Source: Spirochaetales bacterium (lineage in GTDB: Bacteria; Spirochaetota; Spirochaetia; SZUA-6; JAFGRV01). From it: a DNA stretch of 22,156 nucleotides. Numbering within the stretch: position 1 is the stretch's first letter; the number at the start of each line of letters is the position of its first letter. The stretch covers positions 1-22,156 of the forward strand of contig JAFGWI010000019.1 in assembly GCA_016937215.1 (NCBI GenBank). Direction: 5' to 3'. Made by a program: the position numbers and the translations under genes. Shown one piece after another: positions 1-22,156 of this stretch. The notes below the pieces were generated by a model. The model was not told the origin of the DNA, ran no database searches, and was given only the letters and a program-made list of their open reading frames with translations.

Positions 1-126
1 CCATAAAGTTTGGTCACATTTCTCAATTCAACTGTTGCCATATTAACCTCCAAGGGAATAATTATTCATGGATTTTGAAATTAAATACTATCATATAATG
101 ATTATTTGTCAAATATCATTATTATC

Positions 127-1341
127 TTATTCTTTAAAAAAGTTCAACAGATCAGTTGGTTTTTTATCTTCTTTTTCGTCGATTGATAAGGCGGATATTA
201 ACCAAGGTAGTAATTGACTGTTTTTAAATTCGCTCCAATTCGGACTAAAGGGCTCTGGGAATTGAAGAAAATCCTCCTGTGGAATTTTGTCTAAAAGCCG
301 GTGATTGTAATTGGGTAAGACCTTTTCGTTTATTACTTTTAAAACCGAGAAACCATTAAAAAAACCACCTGCCTCGGATAATCTTTTTTGATAGCTGGAT
401 TTTAATATCATTTCCTGAGATTCAATGGATAAATACCACTTTAAAAAATGTTTGGCCCCTTCTTTGTTCTTGGCTTGCAAGGGAATGCCAGCAGCGATGA
501 TATCGTCGCCGATGAATATTTTTTCATTTCTCGATAGCCAGCGAAAATCGAGGTTGTTGAGCTTTTCTTCAGGTATTTTATATAAGATGGATGAGGGATA
601 CAAATAAAGCCCTAGAGTGTTTTCCAGAATTAGTTGGTAAGGCGGGGCATTGAAATATTTGACCGTGTTGTTGTAAAAGTCATTCAACTTTTGTTCGAGC
701 CGTGTTTGCCAGTTGTTGAAGAAACTGATGCTTTTATCCAGGTTTTCATCGTTCCAGGTAATGCTATTTACTTTGTTGTAGGAAAAGTGGGCACCGAATA
801 ATTCTGAAATATAATAGAAGATTTCCTGATTATGAACAGGGGAGTAGCCTATTGATTGATACCTATTGTTTTTCATCTGATTGAGCTTGATGCTGTCATC
901 GATAAGCTTATCGATGGAATAAAACATCTCTGGAATCGTGATTTGATTGTTGCTTTGGCTGAAAAAAACGGTTGGCAGGGTGAAGTTGAGCGGTAAAGCG
1001 CGGAGCTCGTTGTTTATCTGACCTAATTTTTTGAGTCCTTGATAGAATTCCTTGTTTATTTCCCCTGATTCCGGAATTAAATCGTTGATTTTTTCAAATT
1101 TGAGCAAATTCTGATGTTCCAGCACGGTATTGCTGATTATCAGATCTGGCTGGTTTTGCTTGTCCATTTCTGTTATGGGGTTTTTGCTGTAAATTATTTT
1201 TAGAATTCGGCTATTCTGGTTTTTATGGTATAGGTCACTGTAGGCCAATAAACTGGGCCTGTTGGTAACAACGGTTATTTCCTGAGATACCTGACAACCG
1301 GATAGAATCAAGCTAAAGATCAAAATAATGTGCCATTTCAT
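127..1341 (-). CDS. Putative substrate-binding lipoprotein (family-1 ABC solute-binding-protein-like), 404 aa
   Basis: N-terminal signal peptide with lipobox (MKWHIILIFSLILSGC). The C-terminal segment EGAKHFLKWYLSIESQEM resembles the conserved A.FidFLls.EaQ motif of family-1 solute-binding proteins. No ATPase or permease is visible downstream inside the window, so any operon would continue past position 1. Confidence 0.45.
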   Translation of the reverse strand: MKWHIILIFSLILSGCQVSQEITVVTNRPSLLAYSDLYHKNQNSRILKIIYSKNPITEMDKQNQPDLIISNTVLEHQNLLKFEKINDLIPESGEINKEFYQGLKKLGQINNELRALPLNFTLPTVFFSQSNNQITIPEMFYSIDKLIDDSIKLNQMKNNRYQSIGYSPVHNQEIFYYISELFGAHFSYNKVNSITWNDENLDKSISFFNNWQTRLEQKLNDFYNNTVKYFNAPPYQLILENTLGLYLYPSSILYKIPEEKLNNLDFRWLSRNEKIFIGDDIIAAGIPLQAKNKEGAKHFLKWYLSIESQEMILKSSYQKRLSEAGGFFNGFSVLKVINEKVLPNYNHRLLDKIPQEDFLQFPEPFSPNWSEFKNSQLLPWLISALSIDEKEDKKPTDLLNFFKE

Positions 1342-1563
1342 CGAAGCTACTCTACTCGATGGAACTGTGTGCTGTCAAGCTTTCGTTAGTATTGCGGCAG
1401 GGCAAGGTTGTGAAATGGTTTCATGCCCTAATTAAGAGGTCTTGATGGATGTGTTGTCTCCGGGGTTAAAAACAGGGGCGGAACAAGGGGGTTGTGCGAG
1501 GGCTTTGGTTTTTGGCTTGAAAAAAAAGCACCTGGGTTTGAAGTGTTAGGGATAGGAGGCATG

Positions 1564-1735
1564 GCTTGCTATTTTTTCAAAAATGGCAAGCCAAAGCGTT
1601 TTATGCCGGATAATTTCCGGCATAAAACCTTCGGAGCGCCAGCGGAGTGCCGGATAGCCCGACCTGCCATGCCCCTGGGCGGCAGGTAACACCCAAAAAC
1701 AAGAGGAGGGCTGGCTTCTGGTTTCAACTTTTTTT
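1564..1735 (+). ncRNA. Candidate structured RNA/regulatory element, copy A (paralogue of 13279-13397)
   Basis: Hairpin gcttgc-N16-gcaagc (1564-1591) whose loop is the AT palindrome gctattttttcaaaaatggc. Hairpin atgccgg-ataattt-ccggcat (1603-1623). cttcgg (UUCG-type) followed by gagcgccagcggag (1629-1647). Hairpin cctgcc-N12-ggcagg (1663-1686). T7 run at 1729-1735. The first roughly 85 nt align nearly base-for-base with 13279-13365. Overlapping ORFs on both strands (1492..1689, 1546..1800) are judged spurious. Confidence 0.3.
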
Positions 1736-3246: not shown

Positions 3247-3277
3247 CAGAAATGCTTTGCATTTATTGCTTGGTGGA

Positions 3278-3389
3278 GTGAATTTTCATTGGCATTCACT
3301 TTTTGACGTGAATGCTCATTGGCATTCACTTTTTGACGTGAATGCTCATTGGCATTCACTTTTTGACGTGAATGCTCATTGGCATTCAC
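3278..3389. repeat. Tandem array of four 30-bp units, each carrying the palindrome GTGAATGC-TCATTG-GCATTCAC (REP-like); the first copy has a degenerate left arm (gtgaattt)
   Basis: Read directly from the sequence. Arms gtgaatgc at 3308, 3338 and 3368; arms gcattcac at 3292, 3322, 3352 and 3382; constant loop tcattg; constant inter-unit spacer tttttgac. A further degenerate palindrome aaatgctttgcattt sits at 3250-3264. The array lies between the stop of the hydrolase gene (3246) and its terminator hairpin (3435-3466), i.e. in its 3'UTR. ORFs 3257..3451 (+) and 3174..3506 (-) are translation artefacts of this repeat. Confidence 0.9.
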
Positions 3390-3434
3390 TTTTATCATGC
3401 CGTTATGCTGGAAAATATTGGGCAGAAAAGGCTT

Positions 3435-5324: not shown

Positions 5325-5671
5325 GCAAACTCCTTTTTCCCCACTGCTAGTGTTTTTACTTTCTGAAGGTTTCCGTAAAGAATTTTGCTTCTTTGTCGGA
5401 AAGCATCAGTTTCCGGCTGTTTTCCAGATGTCATATTATGTACTTTTTTATTGTTTTTGAATAGACCCTGATTTTATATCCTTGGGTAGGTAAGTTGATG
5501 ATTATGCTCAATGGTGAGTGAGATTTTTCAAAAATCCTGTTTTCCTTAGGTTCAGAGTTTTTTTTCTTTCTTGAATTCTCCTTTTATGATGCTTAGACTT
5601 TGGTCTTAAAATGTAAAATGTTTTTTTTACAGGCATTTTTTATTTTTTTAATAATAATTTCAAAAAAAAAC

Positions 5672-5700
5672 TTGACCTGGAATGTAACTTGTACTATATT
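5672..5700 (+). promoter_or_regulatory. Sigma70-type promoter for the GntR-SPFH operon
   Basis: TTGACC (5672-5677), 17-bp spacer, TATATT (5695-5700). Confidence 0.45.
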
Positions 5701-5733
5701 TATATTGTATTAAGACATTAGTACAATAGTACA
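5690..5733 (+). promoter_or_regulatory. Candidate autoregulatory operator: TGTACTA (5690-5696, overlapping the -10) ... TAGTACA (5719-5725) A TAGTACA (5727-5733)
   Basis: Inverted and direct heptamer repeats with a GTAC core lie between the -10 and the GntR start. YtrA-subfamily GntR repressors bind short inverted repeats overlapping their own promoters (established knowledge). The assignment here is inference. Confidence 0.35.
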
Positions 5734-5749
5734 TTCATACATTGCAATA

Positions 5750-6217
5750 ATGTCTATAAACCTGGATAAGGGCTTTGTAAAAAAGCCCCGGGAACATGGA
5801 GGAATCAGGTTTATGCAGGATAAGATTCATGAAGAACTTGAATTTACTCTGGACCCCAAGAGCGGGGTTCCGTTTTATAAACAGATTATTCTACAGATAG
5901 AGATGGCCATAGCTGACAAGAGGCTGAATCAGGGTGACCAGCTGCCTACTGTTCGAGGGCTGGCAGTAGATTTGCAGGTGAATCCCAATACCGTGGCCCG
6001 GGCTTACAGTGAACTGGAAATCCGGGGGATTGTGAACACGCAACAAGGCACAGGAACCTTTATCAGCGACAAGAAGATCAAGCTCACCGAGGTAGAACGG
6101 GAAAGGATTCTGGCCGAGTTGGTGAGGGGATTTGTTTCCAAAGCGTCGTCCTATGGCTTTTCCCTGGCAGAGATCAGGACCTATCTGGAAGATCTGGAAA
6201 AAGATAAAGAGGAATAG
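5750..6217 (+). CDS. GntR-family transcriptional regulator, short YtrA-like subtype
   Basis: Winged-HTH signature LPTVRGLAVDLQVNPNTVARAYSELEIRGIVNTQQGTGTFI with only a short C-terminal extension. The ATG at 5750 has no SD. An internal ATG at 5813 (MQDKIHEEL...) is preceded by GGAGG at 5798-5802 and is the more likely true start, giving about 134 aa. Confidence 0.75.
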   Translation: MSINLDKGFVKKPREHGGIRFMQDKIHEELEFTLDPKSGVPFYKQIILQIEMAIADKRLNQGDQLPTVRGLAVDLQVNPNTVARAYSELEIRGIVNTQQGTGTFISDKKIKLTEVERERILAELVRGFVSKASSYGFSLAEIRTYLEDLEKDKEE

Positions 6218-6228
6218 GAGGAATTTTA

Positions 6229-7359
6229 ATGCTGGAGAAATTGACTTTTAAGGAACATAACCGAATTAAAAATTTGCCGAAATTGCATTTGCCCAAGGAT
6301 TTCGGTTATAATGCTTTTTCGTTTCTGGTGCTGGGCCTGTTTTTGGCTGCCGGAATCGTGATTCAAAACCTGGCCGTTGGTGAATTGGAATCGGAGGTGA
6401 TTCTGGCTGTCGTTCTGGGCACTTTTATGTGCGGCGGAATTTTGTACCTTGTTCCCATGTGGATCGCGGTGATTCAGTTTTCCATATTGGCCTGGGTTGG
6501 CCTTTATGTGGGAGTCGGCGGGAATATTTATCCCTTGTTCGGATTTCTGGTAGCTGCCTTTTTGTTTTCATCCTGCTTTCAACTGGTTCAGCATTGGGAC
6601 AAGGTAGTGATTCTGCGTTTCGGCAAATTCAGAAAAGCCAGAGGGCCAGGCTTGTTTTTGCTTTTTCCGATTATCGACCGTGTGGCTGCTTTTGTGGATA
6701 CCCGGATTCGAGCCACTGATTTCAGCGCTGAAAAAACTCTCACAGCAGATACGGTTCCTGTTCATGTGGACGCGCTGGCTTTCTGGATGGTTTGGGATGT
6801 GAAAGGGGCTGTGCTTGAGGTGGAGGATTTTGTGGAAGCTGTGGTTCTTTCTGCCCAGACTGCTTTGCGAGACGGCATTGGCAAGCATGAATTGGCCGAT
6901 CTATTGTCTGACCGGGACCAGCTGGGCAAGGAGATTCAGAAAATTCTTGATGCTAAAACAAGCCCCTGGGGCATTACGATTCTATCGATTGAAATTACTG
7001 ATATTATTATTCCCAAGGAACTGGAAGATGCCATGAGCCGACGTGCCCAGGCAGAGAGGGAGCGACAATCCCGGGTAATTCTGGGAACTGCGGAACTGGA
7101 AGTAGCTGATAAATTTCAACAGGCCGCGGAGAAATATAAAGATAATCCTACCGCCCTGCATTTACGCGCCATGAACATGATTTACGAGGGTATACGTAAA
7201 AAAGGCACTATCATGCTTCTGCCATCGAGTGCCCTGGATTCCATGTCTCTTGGCGCCAATCTGGGGGCATTGAATCTGGCCAAGGATTTTCAGCAGGGAA
7301 AGTTGGATGACTCATTTTTGCCTGATGAAGAAAAGGGAAATGGCGAAGCTGAGGATTAG
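6229..7359 (+). CDS. SPFH/band-7 (stomatin/prohibitin-like) membrane protein, 376 aa
   Basis: N-terminal hydrophobic helices. SPFH core VILRFGKF..GPGLFLLFPIIDRV...TADTVPVHVDALAFW...ITILSIEITDIIIPKELEDAMSRRAQAERERQSRVILGTAELE, then a coiled-coil and acidic tail. GGAGGA SD 7 nt before the ATG. The gene starts 11 bp after the GntR stop, so the two form an operon. Internal overlapping ORFs are spurious. Confidence 0.8.
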   Translation: MLEKLTFKEHNRIKNLPKLHLPKDFGYNAFSFLVLGLFLAAGIVIQNLAVGELESEVILAVVLGTFMCGGILYLVPMWIAVIQFSILAWVGLYVGVGGNIYPLFGFLVAAFLFSSCFQLVQHWDKVVILRFGKFRKARGPGLFLLFPIIDRVAAFVDTRIRATDFSAEKTLTADTVPVHVDALAFWMVWDVKGAVLEVEDFVEAVVLSAQTALRDGIGKHELADLLSDRDQLGKEIQKILDAKTSPWGITILSIEITDIIIPKELEDAMSRRAQAERERQSRVILGTAELEVADKFQQAAEKYKDNPTALHLRAMNMIYEGIRKKGTIMLLPSSALDSMSLGANLGALNLAKDFQQGKLDDSFLPDEEKGNGEAED

Positions 7360-7501
7360 GCAATCAACTGGAGGCAAAATGTGATCCATGGCATTGAGTT
7401 GTTTGGGAATTTTTTGGGCGTTGCCTGATAAGCCCGGGACAACAATTCTATATTTGAGTACAAATATTACGAATTGCGAGTTATTTTACTTCGGTGCTGT
7501 G

Positions 7502-7590
7502 GCCATTCCAAATATAAACTATTATTAAGGCAGTTAAAAATCATCAGCTGTAATTAAATTGCATACAAAAAGGTTTATATTTGGAATGGC
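7502..7590. repeat. Perfect 18-bp inverted repeat gccattccaaatataaac / gtttatatttggaatggc separated by 53 AT-rich nt
   Basis: Read directly: 7502-7519 is the exact reverse complement of 7573-7590. Could be a stem-loop RNA or a MITE-like element. Confidence 0.85.
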
Positions 7591-7614
7591 TTAGCCGGGG
7601 GCTTTCAGGCTGCA

Positions 7615-7705
7615 GAAACTGTTGCATAACTATAATTAAGAGTATTTCAACTCGCCTACTGGGTCCATAATTGGTTTAGACGAGTTATTCATAGGCAACA
7701 GTTTC
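7615..7705. repeat. Second long-range inverted repeat gaaactgttgc(ataact) / (agttat)tcatag-gcaacagtttc enclosing about 70 nt
   Basis: 11-bp perfect arms at 7615-7625 and 7695-7705. A 6-bp extension (ataact/agttat) is interrupted by a 6-nt bulge. Confidence 0.6.
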
Positions 7706-7832
7706 GTATTTTAAGGTTGTGCAACAACCTCTGCATGGCCGAGCAACAAATCGAAGATTTGTGACAAGGCCCGCCACTTCGGCTTCGCCTTCGAAGGTTA
7801 AGGTGCGGAAGTTATCCGCCCCTTAACGCTTT

Positions 7833-7862
7833 GTTCGACTATTTTTGAAAAAATAGTCGAAC
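7833..7862. promoter_or_regulatory. Perfect 14+14 bp palindrome gttcgactattttt-ga-aaaaatagtcgaac about 120 bp upstream of the ABC operon
   Basis: Read directly. Flanked by near-direct repeats ccttaacgcttt (7821-7832) and ccctaacgctttt (7875-7887). The AT-rich centre ctatttttgaaaaaatag is nearly the reverse complement of the palindrome at the head of element A (1568-1587). Candidate protein operator or element boundary. Confidence 0.5.
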
Positions 7863-7982
7863 ATGGCTTCAATCCCTAACGCTTTTAGCCGGGGTGCTGT
7901 TATTGGCTAGAGAGGCAGGAAGCATATATTCCGCTGACTTGCTTCCATCAAGGAAATCATAGATTTGGAAAAGGAGAGAACG

Positions 7983-8660
7983 ATGATACAAGTAAAAGAT
8001 GTAGAAAGGACCTATGTTGCTGGAGATACCAAGGTCCATGCCCTGAAAGGGGTCAGTTTATCGGTTAAAGAAGGGGAATTCCTTTCCATTGCCGGGCCTT
8101 CAGGGTCGGGGAAAACAACCCTTTTGAACATTATCGGATGCATTGATGATGCTGATAAGGGTGATGTGATTATTGATCAGGTGGATGTGCGCAGCAAAAA
8201 ACCCGATGAACTAGCCGTATTTCGCCGTGAAAAGCTGGGTTTTGTGTTTCAAACCTTTAATTTGATTCCTGTAATGTCTGCTTATGAAAATGTGGAAATG
8301 GTTTTGAAACTACTAAAGATTTCCGACGCTGAGGCCCGTGAAAGGACCATGGCCATTTTAAAAGAAGTTGGTCTGGAAGGTATGGAAGACAGACGCCCCA
8401 GCCGCTTGTCCGGAGGGCAGCAGCAGAGAGTGGCCATTGCCCGCGCTTTGGTAAAAAACCCGACCCTGGTGCTGGCTGATGAACCTACTGCCAATCTTGA
8501 TTCAGTAACAGGTAAAGCGGTTCTGGATATCATGAAGGCCATGAACAAAAAATACGGCACAGCTTTTATTTTTTCAACCCACGACAAAATGGTCATGGAT
8601 TTCGCGGAGCGTTTGGTTATGCTTCATGATGGCAAAATCGAAAGCGATAAAAGGAGGTAA
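7983..8660 (+). CDS. ABC transporter ATP-binding protein, MacB/LolD family
   Basis: Walker A GPSGSGKTT, signature LSGGQQQRVAIARAL, Walker B LVLADEPT, H-loop STHD. The ORF-track start at 7965 lacks an SD. The ATG at 7983 (MIQVKDVERTY) follows AAGGAGAG with a 5-nt spacer and is taken as the start. Confidence 0.9.
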   Translation: MIQVKDVERTYVAGDTKVHALKGVSLSVKEGEFLSIAGPSGSGKTTLLNIIGCIDDADKGDVIIDQVDVRSKKPDELAVFRREKLGFVFQTFNLIPVMSAYENVEMVLKLLKISDAEARERTMAILKEVGLEGMEDRRPSRLSGGQQQRVAIARALVKNPTLVLADEPTANLDSVTGKAVLDIMKAMNKKYGTAFIFSTHDKMVMDFAERLVMLHDGKIESDKRR

Positions 8661-13233: not shown

Positions 13234-13278
13234 ATTGGCTATTGTGCTGAATGTGTTAGTGATTGGAGCTGTGAGGAG

Positions 13279-13397
13279 GTTTTTTTCAAAAAACCGACGA
13301 AAAGCTTTTTGCCGCGTTTTTAGCGGCAAAAACTTCGGAGCGAAAGCGGAGCAGTGGAATGAACGGCCCCGGAAGGGTGTTTTTGTGCCGGTTTTTT
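13279..13397 (+). ncRNA. Candidate structured RNA/regulatory element, copy B (paralogue of 1564-1735)
   Basis: Palindrome ggttttttt-c-aaaaaacc (13279-13296). Hairpin ttgccgc-gttttta-gcggcaa (13309-13329). cttcgg + agcgaaagcggag (13333-13351). T6 run at 13392-13397. Same order and spacing as copy A, with compensatory changes in the 7-bp hairpin. Confidence 0.3.
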
Positions 13398-17499: not shown

Positions 17500-17686
17500 G
17501 GGTGACTCCTTGTGCTATAAAGTGGCTTTAAAAGCCCTGTTTTTTTGCTGACCCCTTCTCTGAGCCAGGCAGCTGGTTTTCAATCCCCTAGGGAATAGGA
17601 AGCAGGCAAGCTTGTTTTTCAAAACAAACGCAGCCAGCAACAACCATGCTGGCCAAAGCTGACAAGCGCAATCAGGCTGCATGGAT

Positions 17687-17744
17687 ATAGTGAATCCCAA
17701 TGAGGATTCACGTGGACATAGTGAATCCCAATGAGGATTCACGT
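17687..17744. repeat. Two tandem 27-bp units (31-bp period) each containing the palindrome GTGAATCC-CAATGA-GGATTCAC
   Basis: Read directly. atagtgaatcccaatgaggattcacgt appears at 17687-17713 and again at 17718-17744. Read on the minus strand it is GTGAATCC-TCATTG-GGATTCAC, the same loop and arm family as the 3278-3389 array. Located in the divergent region between the LTD lipoprotein gene and the Crp/Fnr-like gene. Confidence 0.85.
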
Positions 17745-18082: not shown

Positions 18083-18703
18083 ATGTCTGATCCAACCTTG
18101 TTCAAGAATTTTGGTCTTCAAGTGCCCAAGGGTGAAACCATTTTCAAAGAAAATGAAGAAGGCAGTAAAATGTACATCATTCAGGAAGGAAAAGTCAGGA
18201 TTTCCAAGAATATCCACGGCAAGGAACATGAACTGGCGGTTTTGATCAAGGGTGAGTTTTTCGGCGAAATGGCCATTGTGACCCAGGAAAAGCGAACGGC
18301 CAGTGCCTCGGCCCTGGAGGATACTTCGCTTCTTTCCTTTGACCGCGAGGGCTTTGCCAGCATGATCAACAAGAACGCCAAAATCGCCTTGAACATTATT
18401 GAAAAACTTTGCCGGCGCTTGCAGGCAGCCAATCAGCAGATCAAGGCCATGGCTCCGCGGAACCTAAAAGGGATGATCGCCCTGAGCCTGTACTATGACT
18501 TTAAAAATGCCGACGGCAAAATGGTCTCCTATTCCAAAAGCCTTGAGGAGATATCCCTGAACCTTCAGCTGCCCTTGCAGGATATCAAGGATCAGGTGGA
18601 AGGAATGATCAAAAGCGGGATTTTAAAGCTGGAGAATGACCAACTGATTCTGCTGAACAGCCCTGGCCTGGATGACATCGCCGACGATGTTGTTAAACGA
18701 TAA
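18083..18703 (+). CDS. Crp/Fnr-family regulator (cNMP-binding domain plus C-terminal winged-helix-like region), 206 aa
   Basis: cNMP-binding beta-roll: YIIQEGKVRISKNIHGKEHELAVLIKGEFFGEMAI...RTASASALEDTSLL. C-terminal SLEEISLNLQLPLQDIKDQVEGMIKSGIL resembles an HTH. AGAGGAG SD 8 nt before the ATG. Confidence 0.65.
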   Translation: MSDPTLFKNFGLQVPKGETIFKENEEGSKMYIIQEGKVRISKNIHGKEHELAVLIKGEFFGEMAIVTQEKRTASASALEDTSLLSFDREGFASMINKNAKIALNIIEKLCRRLQAANQQIKAMAPRNLKGMIALSLYYDFKNADGKMVSYSKSLEEISLNLQLPLQDIKDQVEGMIKSGILKLENDQLILLNSPGLDDIADDVVKR

Positions 18704-19997: not shown

Positions 19998-20015
19998 CAT
20001 GTCCTCACAGATCAA

Positions 20016-20350
20016 GTTGATCGGGTCTCAAAACCCTCCATGCCGTGCCAGACCCCGGGACGCGGCAAAAACCGGTTGTCAATAATACTCTTTTTGGGCT
20101 GTTTGGAAAAGGGGGCCGGCATACTCTCGTGCCATTTGCGGGCTTCTTTTTTTTGGGCATTACCTGGTGAAAAGGCTAATTGACACAGCTTCCCGGAACC
20201 CGAACGAACAGCCCCCAAAACAGCGGCACCAGGCCCGGGCTTTCCGCTCCAACTCCTCGCGCCGCTGAATAAACGGAAGCTTCCGGATCTCTCTCCTTTC
20301 TCACGAGCCCCGCGGCCTTGCCCCGGCGCGGCGCTGCGGGGTTTCCGCTT
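20016..20350 (-). other. GC-rich non-coding island upstream of mnmA: candidate structured RNA or leader (identity unresolved)
   Basis: Markedly more G+C-rich than the surrounding sequence, with runs such as ccccggg, gcgccgc and cccgggc. The only ORF (20012..20353) translates to low-complexity RG/PG-rich text. Contains stems, e.g. ccccgcgg...ctgcgggg and the perfect palindrome cggaagcttccg. Strand assigned only by position relative to mnmA. Confidence 0.25.
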
Positions 20351-20755
20351 CAATCCCTAATGCGGTGAAAGGCGGGCTGTGGCCGGAATTGGCGCTGGGC
20401 ATAATCGATCCAGCTGTCTTCCTGTATGGCATGAAAGCTGGTGCTCAGCGCTATGTTCAGGGTATCACCTGTATTTTGATCCAGAACAATGTTTTTTTGG
20501 CCCGGAATGTCTGACACAGGGAGCCATGCTTTGAAATTCAGCATTCAGGTTAATATTTTTATGAAGCTGAGCCTCGTGCTTCAAGCTTTGAAGATGCTCC
20601 TCTTCCTCAAAAAGCTTTTCATCATAGGGGGCCGCCCGCGCCAGCTTCATCAAGCTCTTAACAGTGTTGAAATGAGCAGTTAAATCGCATGCCCCCCCTA
20701 AGATTACAGGATTTTTTAGTGTGAAACCCGGAAATTTGGTCTTTAGAGTGGCCAT
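20350..20755 (-). pseudogene. Small gene (about 135 aa if merged) split into two frames at a T7/A7 homopolymer (20492-20498)
   Basis: ORFs 20465..20755 and 20350..20544 are adjacent, same strand, in different frames, and overlap exactly over the homopolymer. A 1-nt indel would fuse them (MATLKTKFPGF...HSGP | KNIVLDQNTGDTLNIALSTSFHAIQED...). Could be a sequencing error, a true pseudogene, or slippage. Confidence 0.3.
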
Positions 20756-20825: not shown

Positions 20826-20859
20826 AAAAAAAAAGAGGATATCCCGAGGGGATATCCTC
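20826..20859 (-). terminator. Rho-independent terminator of the repeat-protein gene
   Basis: Perfect 11-bp stem gaggatatccc / gggatatcctc with loop gag, immediately followed on the minus strand by U9 (A9 at 20826-20834 on the plus strand). Confidence 0.7.
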
Positions 20860-21094: not shown

Positions 21095-22156
21095 TTAGTT
21101 ATTCATCATAGTAGCGCAAAAAACGATAAAATTTTGAGCCGGGTATTCGATCCCATTTATTGTAACGGTCCCAACAGCTGTATCTGTGTAGATAGTATCA
21201 CTCGTAACATCATAATTAGCCACAATCGTTGAAATGGTCGTTGAGTCAAAAGTAATAACCAAATTTGCGGTTATGGTTCTGGTCGTGTCTTCATTAAAGG
21301 TTTCTGAAAGTGTTCCGTTTACTGAAAATGGATGTGGTGAAGTTGGTAAGGGTGTATTTGTGAATGTTGTTATTTGTCCATTATCAGAGATGGGTGTTTT
21401 CTCAATGGTGGGATCCTGATCTCCAGCAGCCCAGCTGAGCATCATTGCTGTGAATAAAAAATTATATCCTATTTCTTCATTGTCTATTTCAGGATCTGGT
21501 GTTACTTCAGGGTCGTTTGAAATATTTTGAATCAAATAAGTATAAAATGCCTGAGCGTTTATTTCAACATCGTTTATAATAATTGTACCGACTGCAATAG
21601 GATCGGCTATGTTCGAATTGTCATAATCAAATGACCCGTTGATTGTGAATAAATTGGGGTCATTGGTGAAAATGAAATTGAAAGTTATATTTCCGTTTAT
21701 TTCTGTGCCAGTTGATAATAAATTTCCGCTTGCCTTATAATCTGGTTCTTCTGAATTGTATACAGCATTATTTAAAGTTGCATTCATCACGCCATCACTA
21801 TTGCTAGCTGAAACTGTTGTGCCATCAGGGTCAGTGATCTGTCGATAAAGATTTGTGCATACCTCATAAGCATATAATTCTGTTTCTTCATTTAACACCG
21901 GGATTTCAGTTACTTCAGGTTCCGGTGTCACTTCAGGTTCCGGTGTCACTTCAGGTTCTGGTGTCACTTCAGGTTCTGGTGTCACTTCAGGTTCTGGTGT
22001 CACTTCAGGTTCCGGTGTCACTTCAGGTTCTGGTGTCACTTCAGGTTCCGGTGTTACTTCAGGTTCCGGTGTTACTTCAGGTTCCGGTGTTACTTCAGGT
22101 TCCGGTGTTACTTCAGGTTCCGGTGTTACTTCAGGTTCTGGTGTTACTTCAGGTTC
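21095..22156 (-). CDS. Secreted/surface repeat protein, 5'-truncated by the window edge: N-terminal (TPEPEV)n linker then two related Thr/Asn/Ile-rich beta-type domains
   Basis: The reading frame is open to the end of the window. The M at 22039 in the ORF track is a GTG (Val) codon inside the repeat, not a start. The C-terminal part contains an internal duplication ([22 protein letters not shown] vs [22 protein letters not shown]). Confidence 0.7.
21911..22156. repeat. At least 13 tandem copies of the 18-bp unit ggttcYggtgtYacttca (encoding TPEPEV on the minus strand), continuing past the window end
   Basis: Read directly. Units differ only at two Y positions, which fall on third codon positions (ccg/cca Pro, gtg/gta Val). 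Confidence 0.9.

Follow-up and report, generated by a model that had tools for sequence, protein, structure and literature searches.

A palindrome in an ABC/LolA-like operon of a Spirochaetales bacterium is probably part of a Flavo-1-type structured intergenic repeat

Four copies (A, B, C and D) of a structured repeat were found on a 22-kb Spirochaetales contig belonging to a metagenome-assembled genome (MAG); the window analyzed here is this whole stretch of 22,156 nt. The conspicuous palindrome at 7832–7863, upstream of the ABC/LolA-like genes of an operon, is very probably the first stem-loop in the apical domain of copy C. This copy, a Flavo-1-type structured intergenic repeat, runs on the minus strand, antisense to the operon. 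The identity of the palindrome as a stem-loop of such a repeat is well supported. A, B and C are homologous copies of one repeat family, and all four copies are kin to Flavo-1. The Flavo-1 RNA motif (Rfam RF01705) was described as a computational motif of unknown function (Weinberg et al., 2010; PMC2864571); its original alignment had apical stems of variable length and came mostly from Bacteroidetes, with a few members from Spirochaetes (PMC2864571).

The 30-bp palindrome gttcgactatttttgaaaaaatagtcgaac was present at 7833–7862, where a preliminary description of this DNA had placed it. Its arms are perfect and its centre is 2 nt long, as described, but the arms are 15 + 15 and not 14 + 14, since the flanking T7832 and A7863 also pair. 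It is the longest perfect inverted repeat of the window; in 60 dinucleotide-preserving shuffles the longest arm measured 7–12 nt, usually 8–9 nt. A 2-nt loop had been considered too tight for an RNA hairpin. The innermost A-U pair opens, however, and the predicted fold has 14 bp and a 4-nt loop (–20.3 kcal/mol on the plus strand, –17.9 kcal/mol on the minus strand), so this argument fails. The start of the ABC gene lies 120 nt downstream of the palindrome, with a weak sigma-70-like match at 7903–7930 between the two. A reading as an intrinsic terminator, with a GC-rich stem and then a T-run, was rejected, as the sequence that follows the palindrome is ATGGCTTC on the plus and AAAGCGTT on the minus strand; a scan for terminator-like sites in 7200–8100 found none. 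A tRNA/tmRNA search was also negative.

The likeness between the palindrome and two other sites had been described as one of the core (element A) or of the centre (element B). The core in A lies at 1568–1587 exactly as given, and its reverse complement agrees with the core of C at 17 of 18 positions; the one in B (ggtttttttcaaaaaacc) exists as well, at 13278–13295, one base off the position first reported. The likeness really spans about 115–155 nt. The reverse complement of 7768–7882 aligned over its full length with A (1543–1664) and B (13253–13364), a BLAST match between opposite strands reached 72% identity over 99 nt (E = 2e-8), and the blocks GTTAGGGATNGGAG and CTTCGGAGCGNNAGCGGAG have a chance expectation near zero in the window. 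A shared origin of the three sites, which had been raised as one option, is therefore borne out by full-length homology and by the fourth copy, D. Read from its 5' side, the element begins with GYGTTAG(G/T)GAT.G.AG and continues with an inner stem of 3–4 bp, hairpin 1 (hp1, T-run/A-run), AAAGCG, hairpin 2 (hp2), hairpin 3 (hp3, CTTCG-loop-CG(G/A)AG) and the return strand of the inner stem.

Covariation was assessed in four sequences, A, B, C and a copy from another MAG (L055), against 500 shuffles and slid controls. In this set 93% of the cells were paired and 16 pairs had changed on both sides; none of the 500 shuffles reached this covariation, and the slid controls gave 2–3 both-side pairs. 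The centre of hp1, T5/A5 (T5-6/A5), was invariant across the copies, and six outer pairs of this hairpin had changed on both sides: the outer arms read GGCTTGC/GCAAGCC in A, GTTCGAC/GTCGAAC in C and GGCACGTG/CGCGTGCC in L055. As the outer 8–9 bp of each hp1 arm change in a compensatory way, it is the pairing that is conserved and not the sequence. The inner stem is compensated likewise (GCA/TGC in A, CTG/CAG in B, CCA/TGG in C). The L055 copy (positions 12–133, minus strand, 122 nt) comes from a 'Bacteroidales' MAG of the same accession series and habitat and is 88.5% identical to A, most differences being compensatory. With 54% GC it stands on a contig of 31% GC, at the contig end; either the copy spread horizontally between unrelated hosts, or this end of the contig is chimeric.

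Copy A (1543–1697, plus strand) is complete, as judged from its skeleton, its fold (z = –6.8) and its identity to the L055 copy. It has an outer stem GTGTT/AACAC, the skeleton AGGGATAGGAG ... GGATAGCCCGACC, hp1 at 1563–1592 (with one T.G pair), hp2 at 1599–1627, hp3 at 1629–1647, a 3' hairpin and the tail CCAAA. Copy B (13253–13364, plus strand), recognized by alignment and pair counts, sits between convergent genes and has the 5' skeleton GTGTTAGTGATTGGAG, a short hp1 (13278–13295), hp2 (13306–13332), hp3 (13333–13351) and the inner stem CTG/CAG; neither a 3' skeleton nor an AACAC-CCAAA tail was found in it, so its 3' end is decayed. Copy D (20152–20362, minus strand), located upstream of mnmA, had escaped the preliminary description and was brought out by R1, a covariance model that we built from canonical copies (see below). 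Its order is GCATT-AGGGATTGAAGCGG, a GC-rich apical insert of 84–86 nt, GGAGCGGAAAGCCCG, a hairpin and TAATGC-CCAAAAAAAA; the T/A palindrome of hp1 is missing. Two mechanically called ORFs, 20012–20353 and 20350–20544, overlap copy D and are therefore probably not genes.

The core of copy C (7768–7882, minus strand) is defined by the alignments with A and B, by R1 and by the pair counts. It begins with GCGTT at 7882, within the 5' skeleton GCGTTAGGGATTGAAG (7882–7867), and continues with the inner stem CCA/TGG, hp1 (7862–7833, or 7863–7832 with the additional pair; centre TTTTTTCAAAAA in element orientation), the AAAGCG linker, hp2 (7826–7798) and hp3 (CTTCG..CGAAG, 7796–7777). About 260 nt downstream of its GGGATTG the 3' skeleton GAAAGCCC follows at 7606–7599, on the minus strand and in correct order and orientation, and then the canonical tail AACGCCCAAAAAA at 7422–7410, which includes AACGCCCAAA at 7422–7413 and reads GGCAACGCCCAAAAAA over about 7425–7410. 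Between the 3' skeleton and the tail lies a chain of hairpins; the one at 7502–7590 is long and imperfect, with 37-nt arms that are 78% complementary. Copy C would accordingly have a probable full extent of about 470 nt (7410–7882, minus strand), and nearly the whole 624-nt spacer between the SPFH and ABC genes may be one expanded or nested element. The closing helices P0 and P1 did not form in free-energy folding of the 486-nt region, where GGGAUU (7876–7871) pairs with AAUUCCC (7411–7405) instead, at a probability of about 0.47; as thermodynamics does not predict these helices, we infer this extent from the order of motifs only.

The skeleton common to all copies, GYRTT-AGGGAT.G.AG ... A.AGCCCG ... 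AAYRC-CCAAA, also occurs in Bacteroidota and Treponema genomes. Its outer stem (GYRTT/AAYRC) has 5 bp, and its basal helix, GGGAT-N-G / A-N'-AGCCC, contains conserved purine-purine mismatches; the apical domain and the 3' hairpin that follow are both variable, and CCAAA forms the tail. In A, B and C the apical domain is made up of three hairpins, the first of which carries the invariant T5-6/A5 centre. A scan of one genome per species with the pattern GTTAGNGATNGNAG-N6-20-TTTTTNNAAAAA returned at least 56 loci, and since the pattern demands TTTTTNNAAAAA the view of the apical stem is biased and copy numbers cannot be derived from it. The matches listed were mostly from Flavobacteriaceae, with others from further Bacteroidota (including Bacteroidales) and from Treponema/Treponemataceae. 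Most of the listed loci showed GCGTTAGGGAT.G.AGCGG, a CCTTTTT..AAAAAGA hairpin, AGCG.A.AGCCCGACC, a second hairpin and GG.AACGCCCAAA, and Rfam names them Flavo-1 (RF01705) at 47–74 bits.

In 27 canonical copies 94% of the extended structure (P0, P1, GC/GC step, T/A apical stem and 3' hairpin) was paired and both sides had changed in 13 pairs; none of 500 shuffles did as well. The outer stem GCGUU/AACGC was 99% paired in these copies, and every variant of it is compensated: GTGTT/AACAC in A, GCATT/AATGC in D and GAGTT/AACTC in a further locus (L025). Outer stem and CCAAA tail occur together in A and D; C has GCGTT and AACGCCCAAA, and B has neither. The basal helix reads GGGATAG/GGATAGCCC in A, GGGATTG/GGAAAGCCC in D and GGGATTG with GAAAGCCC in C, and is partly intact in B; its N/N' pair covaries in the family (UA 31, AU 20, GC 3). 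Of the internal loop N-AGCGG/AGCG-N-A with its GC/GC pairing, copy D keeps GAAGCGG...GGAGCGGAAAG; in A, B and C the loop is replaced by the inner stem of 3–4 bp, and AGCG blocks turn up again both after hp1 and within hp3. An apical U-run/A-run stem as in the Rfam consensus (auCCUUUuuug...caaaAAAGau) is present too, and four of the seven copies that were not picked by the scan pattern have a T-run/A-run stem.

The gathering score of Rfam for Flavo-1 is 42 bits, and a search of the whole window at gathering level gave no match. In E-value mode (E ≤ 10) the regions of A and C yielded no Flavo-1 but only noise, for example miRNA-like hairpin matches; copy D scored 28.6 bits (E = 3.1e-4) with the Flavo-1 model, below the gathering score. 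R1 found copy C at 22.7 bits (E = 0.0014 for the whole window), D at 12.6 bits and A weakly (12.4 bits, E = 0.36); it missed the L055 copy and detected the two-hairpin variants of Treponema at 32–45 bits. The window copies are structural variants of Flavo-1 that lie outside its curated cut-off. They share with Flavo-1 the basal skeleton GGGAU-N-G-N-AGCGG ... AGCG-N-A-N'-AGCCCGA with covarying N/N', the flanking GCGUU...AACGCCCAAA of most copies, a variable-length apical stem that often starts CCUUUUU/AAAAAGA, and the occurrence of many copies per genome. They differ in that A, B and C carry a three-hairpin domain on a short covarying inner stem instead of a single apical stem and have an altered AGCGG/AGCG internal loop, in that copy C may reach about 470 nt, and in their host, an uncultured Spirochaetales lineage.

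The copies from Treponema/Treponemataceae (L005, L030, L056 and L058) have the same skeleton and tail and two apical hairpins, the first with an identical GC-ATTTTTTCAAAAAT-GC centre on a different outer stem; they lack hp3 (CTTCG..CGGAG), and their ATAGCCC block is duplicated internally. The conservation of the T/A centre between Treponema and the Spirochaetales lineage is partly an ascertainment effect, as the scan pattern demanded TTTTTNNAAAAA. In L030 (4344–4479, minus strand) the 2-nt centre of hairpin 1 is flipped relative to L005 and L056, reading TTTTTGAAAAAA and not TTTTTTCAAAAA, within one genome; such a flip would be the product expected from inversion of a hairpin loop at the DNA level. 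In the Treponemataceae MAG of L005, a match to the Rfam TD-2 RNA (156–257, plus strand, 51.6 bits) ends where the Flavo-1-like copy starts, and the sequence upstream of the L056 copy is similar to this TD-2 region; the two may form a composite repeat unit in Treponema. Two canonical Flavo-1 copies from Algibacter (L031, 2131–2281; L057, 7543–7696) have an insert of about 70 nt in the T-run/A-run apical stem. It contains GATTGCCAC.TCGCT.ACTCCT.GCAAT.AC and appears to be a nested insertion of another short repeat into this stem.

The behavior of the family was followed in 56 copies, 52 from other genomes (among the matches listed) and the 4 of the window, with genes taken from a simple ORF call. 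Fifty-three of the 56 were intergenic, and the four orientation classes relative to genes were about equally filled (17/12/11/10). In the well-aligned helices of 55 copies, G.U outnumbered A.C by 24 to 2, from which it follows that one defined strand folds, in the form of RNA or of single-stranded DNA. In Rfam, Flavo-1 is entered as 'Gene; sRNA' (RF01705), and each copy could be an independently transcribed small RNA acting in trans, with hp1 as a functional arm, for instance a U-rich/A-rich protein-binding loop. The single folding strand suits this idea, as do the strong covariation in the 27 canonical copies and in A, L055, C and B and the preservation of the skeleton across two phyla. We nevertheless consider it unlikely. 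Promoters and terminators are not conserved beside the copies: a TAnnTTTG box (the –7 box of Bacteroidetes) lay within 70 nt upstream of only 2 of 48 Bacteroidota copies, a T-run just downstream of 3 of the 48, and the flank profiles showed no conserved upstream motif. The copies are oriented at random to genes, and many border directly on coding regions; the 3' parts of B and C have diverged, decayed or been rearranged; and the apical domains vary in length between about 20 and about 250 nt. A transcriptome study of F. psychrophilum placed Flavo-1 matches on the sense or the antisense strand of transcripts and found no transcription for many of them (PMC9723704). In some cases (L021/L050, L009/L010) canonical copies from different genera sit at orthologous positions, which speaks for a small RNA as well and fits long-term retention, possibly with a host function.

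Among the 56 listed loci no protein family, such as a transposase, recurred beside the element. Literature on RF01705 and on REP/RAYT in Flavobacteria held nothing on function. Scans of metagenomes with variant-specific patterns gave no match; scans of viral contigs were negative as well and thus give no hint of a phage origin. Several GTDB contigs end within the element. The Logan short-read contigs L001 and L002, from the same organism, stop about 110 nt into the SPFH-ABC spacer, some 30 nt before the 7502–7590 hairpin, which suggests an assembly break induced by a repeat or hairpin.

The operon itself was compared with three related Spirochaetales MAGs (L059, L060 and L061), which keep its order GntR-SPFH-ABC ATPase-FtsX-FtsX-LolA-like-unknown and whose SPFH proteins are 71–74% identical. 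Their SPFH-ABC spacers measure 31, 34 and 83 nt, respectively, compared with 624 nt in the window, and each ends in a GAGGAGG ribosome-binding site. Skeleton motifs were absent from 58 kb of these three genomes, against four in the 22-kb window. As the spacers of the relatives are short and free of the skeleton, the structured block was gained inside the operon in this lineage: the element is a lineage-specific gain of about 0.5–0.6 kb between the SPFH stop codon and the ribosome-binding site of the ABC gene. All four genomes have, upstream of GntR (5671–5733, plus strand, in the window), a block of TTGAC(A/C)-N17-TA(T/A)ATT followed by TGTA...TACA repeats; the window's version reads TTGACC-N17-TATATT followed by TGTATT/GTACA repeats. 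This block, unrelated in sequence to the palindrome, is likely the real promoter and YtrA-type operator of the GntR-SPFH-ABC-LolA-like operon.

These comparisons bear on the reading first proposed for the palindrome, an operator for a dimeric protein, namely the YtrA-like GntR (5750–6217) or the Crp/Fnr-like protein (18083–18703), serving a small regulon that includes the ABC/LolA-like operon. Perfect symmetry, a position 120 nt upstream of the ABC start, the weak sigma-70-like match between palindrome and gene and the invariant T5-N2-A5 centre in A, B and C would all agree with an operator, and like the operators of the YtrA subfamily of GntR proteins the palindrome lies near an ABC-transporter operon that starts with a short GntR gene. 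Conserved half-sites at a fixed position in orthologous operons were, however, not found. The outer arms covary, keeping pairing and not sequence, and the palindrome is missing from the same operon of the three relatives, with their spacers of 31–83 nt. What all four genomes share is a different block, rich in TGTA..TACA, which overlaps the promoter in front of GntR, and in this the palindrome, with arms not conserved in sequence, differs from the YtrA-type case. In addition, it is embedded in a conserved element of at least 115 nt with two further hairpins and the Flavo-1 skeleton, copy B lies between convergent genes, copy C is antisense to the operon, and the family has no orientation preference relative to genes. 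The hp1 centre does not appear to resemble the half-site consensus of either GntR or Crp/Fnr proteins, which also counts against an operator. We give this reading almost no credence.

Slightly less improbable, though still very doubtful, is a domesticated RNA acting in cis as a processing site, stabilizer, attenuator or insulator that uncouples expression of the ABC/LolA-like genes from that of GntR-SPFH. The palindrome does fold on the plus strand, that of the mRNA, too (–20.3 kcal/mol), but the sense strand of the element is the minus strand. The spacer is far more structured than shuffles on both of its strands (z = –7.6 and –8.0), and transcription could restart from the promoter-like match at 7903–7930; yet 7200–8100 holds no terminator-like site, the relatives run the operon without such a spacer, and other copies stand in unrelated contexts and in all orientations.

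We slightly favor the view that the family behaves as a dispersed, non-autonomous repeat, similar to REP sequences or MITEs. One strand, as RNA or single-stranded DNA, would fold into a shape that is recognized by a factor acting in trans, and the repeat would spread or persist owing to this recognized shape. The palindrome would then be a structural module of the folded shape and not a gene-specific regulatory site, and whatever influence it had on the ABC/LolA-like genes would be incidental to the placing of a very stable structure in the operon. In line with this view are the intergenic location of nearly all copies in every orientation, the scarcity of promoters and terminators beside them, the lack of a recurring neighbor gene, the degraded 3' parts of B and C, the contig breaks in the spacer, the GC contrast of the L055 copy and the F. 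psychrophilum data. Mobility is inferred here, as no transposase, target-site duplication or near-identical pair of empty and filled sites was found; the contrast between filled and empty spacers is with distant relatives only (SPFH 71–74% identical). Terminal inverted repeats beyond 5 bp were not seen, and no target-site duplication was recognizable in the flank profiles.

REP/BIME sequences and REPINs of Proteobacteria appear similar in mode: they are short, intergenic, multi-copy and strongly palindromic, with compensatory pairing, have no fixed orientation, often lie in clusters or nested, and cause assemblies to break. They differ in that REPs are mobilized by RAYT tyrosine transposases, while no RAYT or other Y1 transposase came up here, where one 22-kb contig of the genome was covered; the present family has no conserved GTAG-type head and its skeleton is a branched multi-helix fold instead of a single imperfect palindrome. 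Bacterial MITEs (Correia, RUP, ERIC) resemble the family in being non-coding and about 0.1–0.2 kb long, with decayed copies, presence/absence polymorphism between relatives and insertion into operon spacers; here only a 5-bp closing stem is present, no target-site duplication is identifiable and there is no cognate IS element. Going further, one may speculate that the Flavo-1 skeleton is a recognition platform for a strand-specific mobilization enzyme or an RNA-binding complex acting in trans, with the variable apical domain as a cargo or specificity module; we think this improbable. If it were true, the invariant AUUUUUUCAAAAAU hairpin, common to the Spirochaetales lineage, Treponema and (as CCUUUUUU/AAAAAAGA) Flavobacteria, would be a conserved ligand- or protein-binding module, and the 88.5%-identical L055 copy would reflect recent movement between unrelated hosts. 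An integron attC-like reading of the element was rejected, since its GTT.../...AAC boxes stand in the wrong order and do not form part of an array.

Other repeats were noted in the window. At 3269–3390 there are 3–4 tandem hairpin units of 30–31 nt (GTGAATGC-tcattg-GCATTCAC), and at 17682–17743 two tandem units (GTGAATCC-caatga-GGATTCAC) that are related to them by reverse complementarity, with compensatory changes in the stems. Together they look like a second, unrelated REP-like family; a CRISPR reading of these 30-nt units was discarded because there are no spacers. An 18-nt tandem repeat of at least 11 copies at 21855–22156 runs to the contig end, in or next to the ORF 21095–22039 (minus strand), and is probably a coding peptide repeat and the reason for the contig end. 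Downstream of this gene, GAGGATATCCC-cga-GGGATATCCTC followed by nine T (20826–20859, minus strand) is an ordinary intrinsic terminator.

In terms of annotation, a misleading regulatory clue can be dropped: control of the ABC/LolA-like operon is most likely exerted at the conserved promoter/operator-like block in front of GntR. Among Rfam families without known function, Flavo-1 ranks with the most abundant. What the present data add for this family are the extended architecture with its outer stem, second hairpin and CCAAA tail, the expanded Spirochaetales variants missed by the Rfam model, and a folding that is strand-specific, yet goes along with no promoter, terminator or orientation preference and with gain inside operons. 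Taken together, these traits speak more for a structured repeat of a selfish or semi-domesticated kind than for a classical small RNA, and the intact and decayed copies, together with the filled and empty operon spacers, provide material for testing the selfish-repeat idea.
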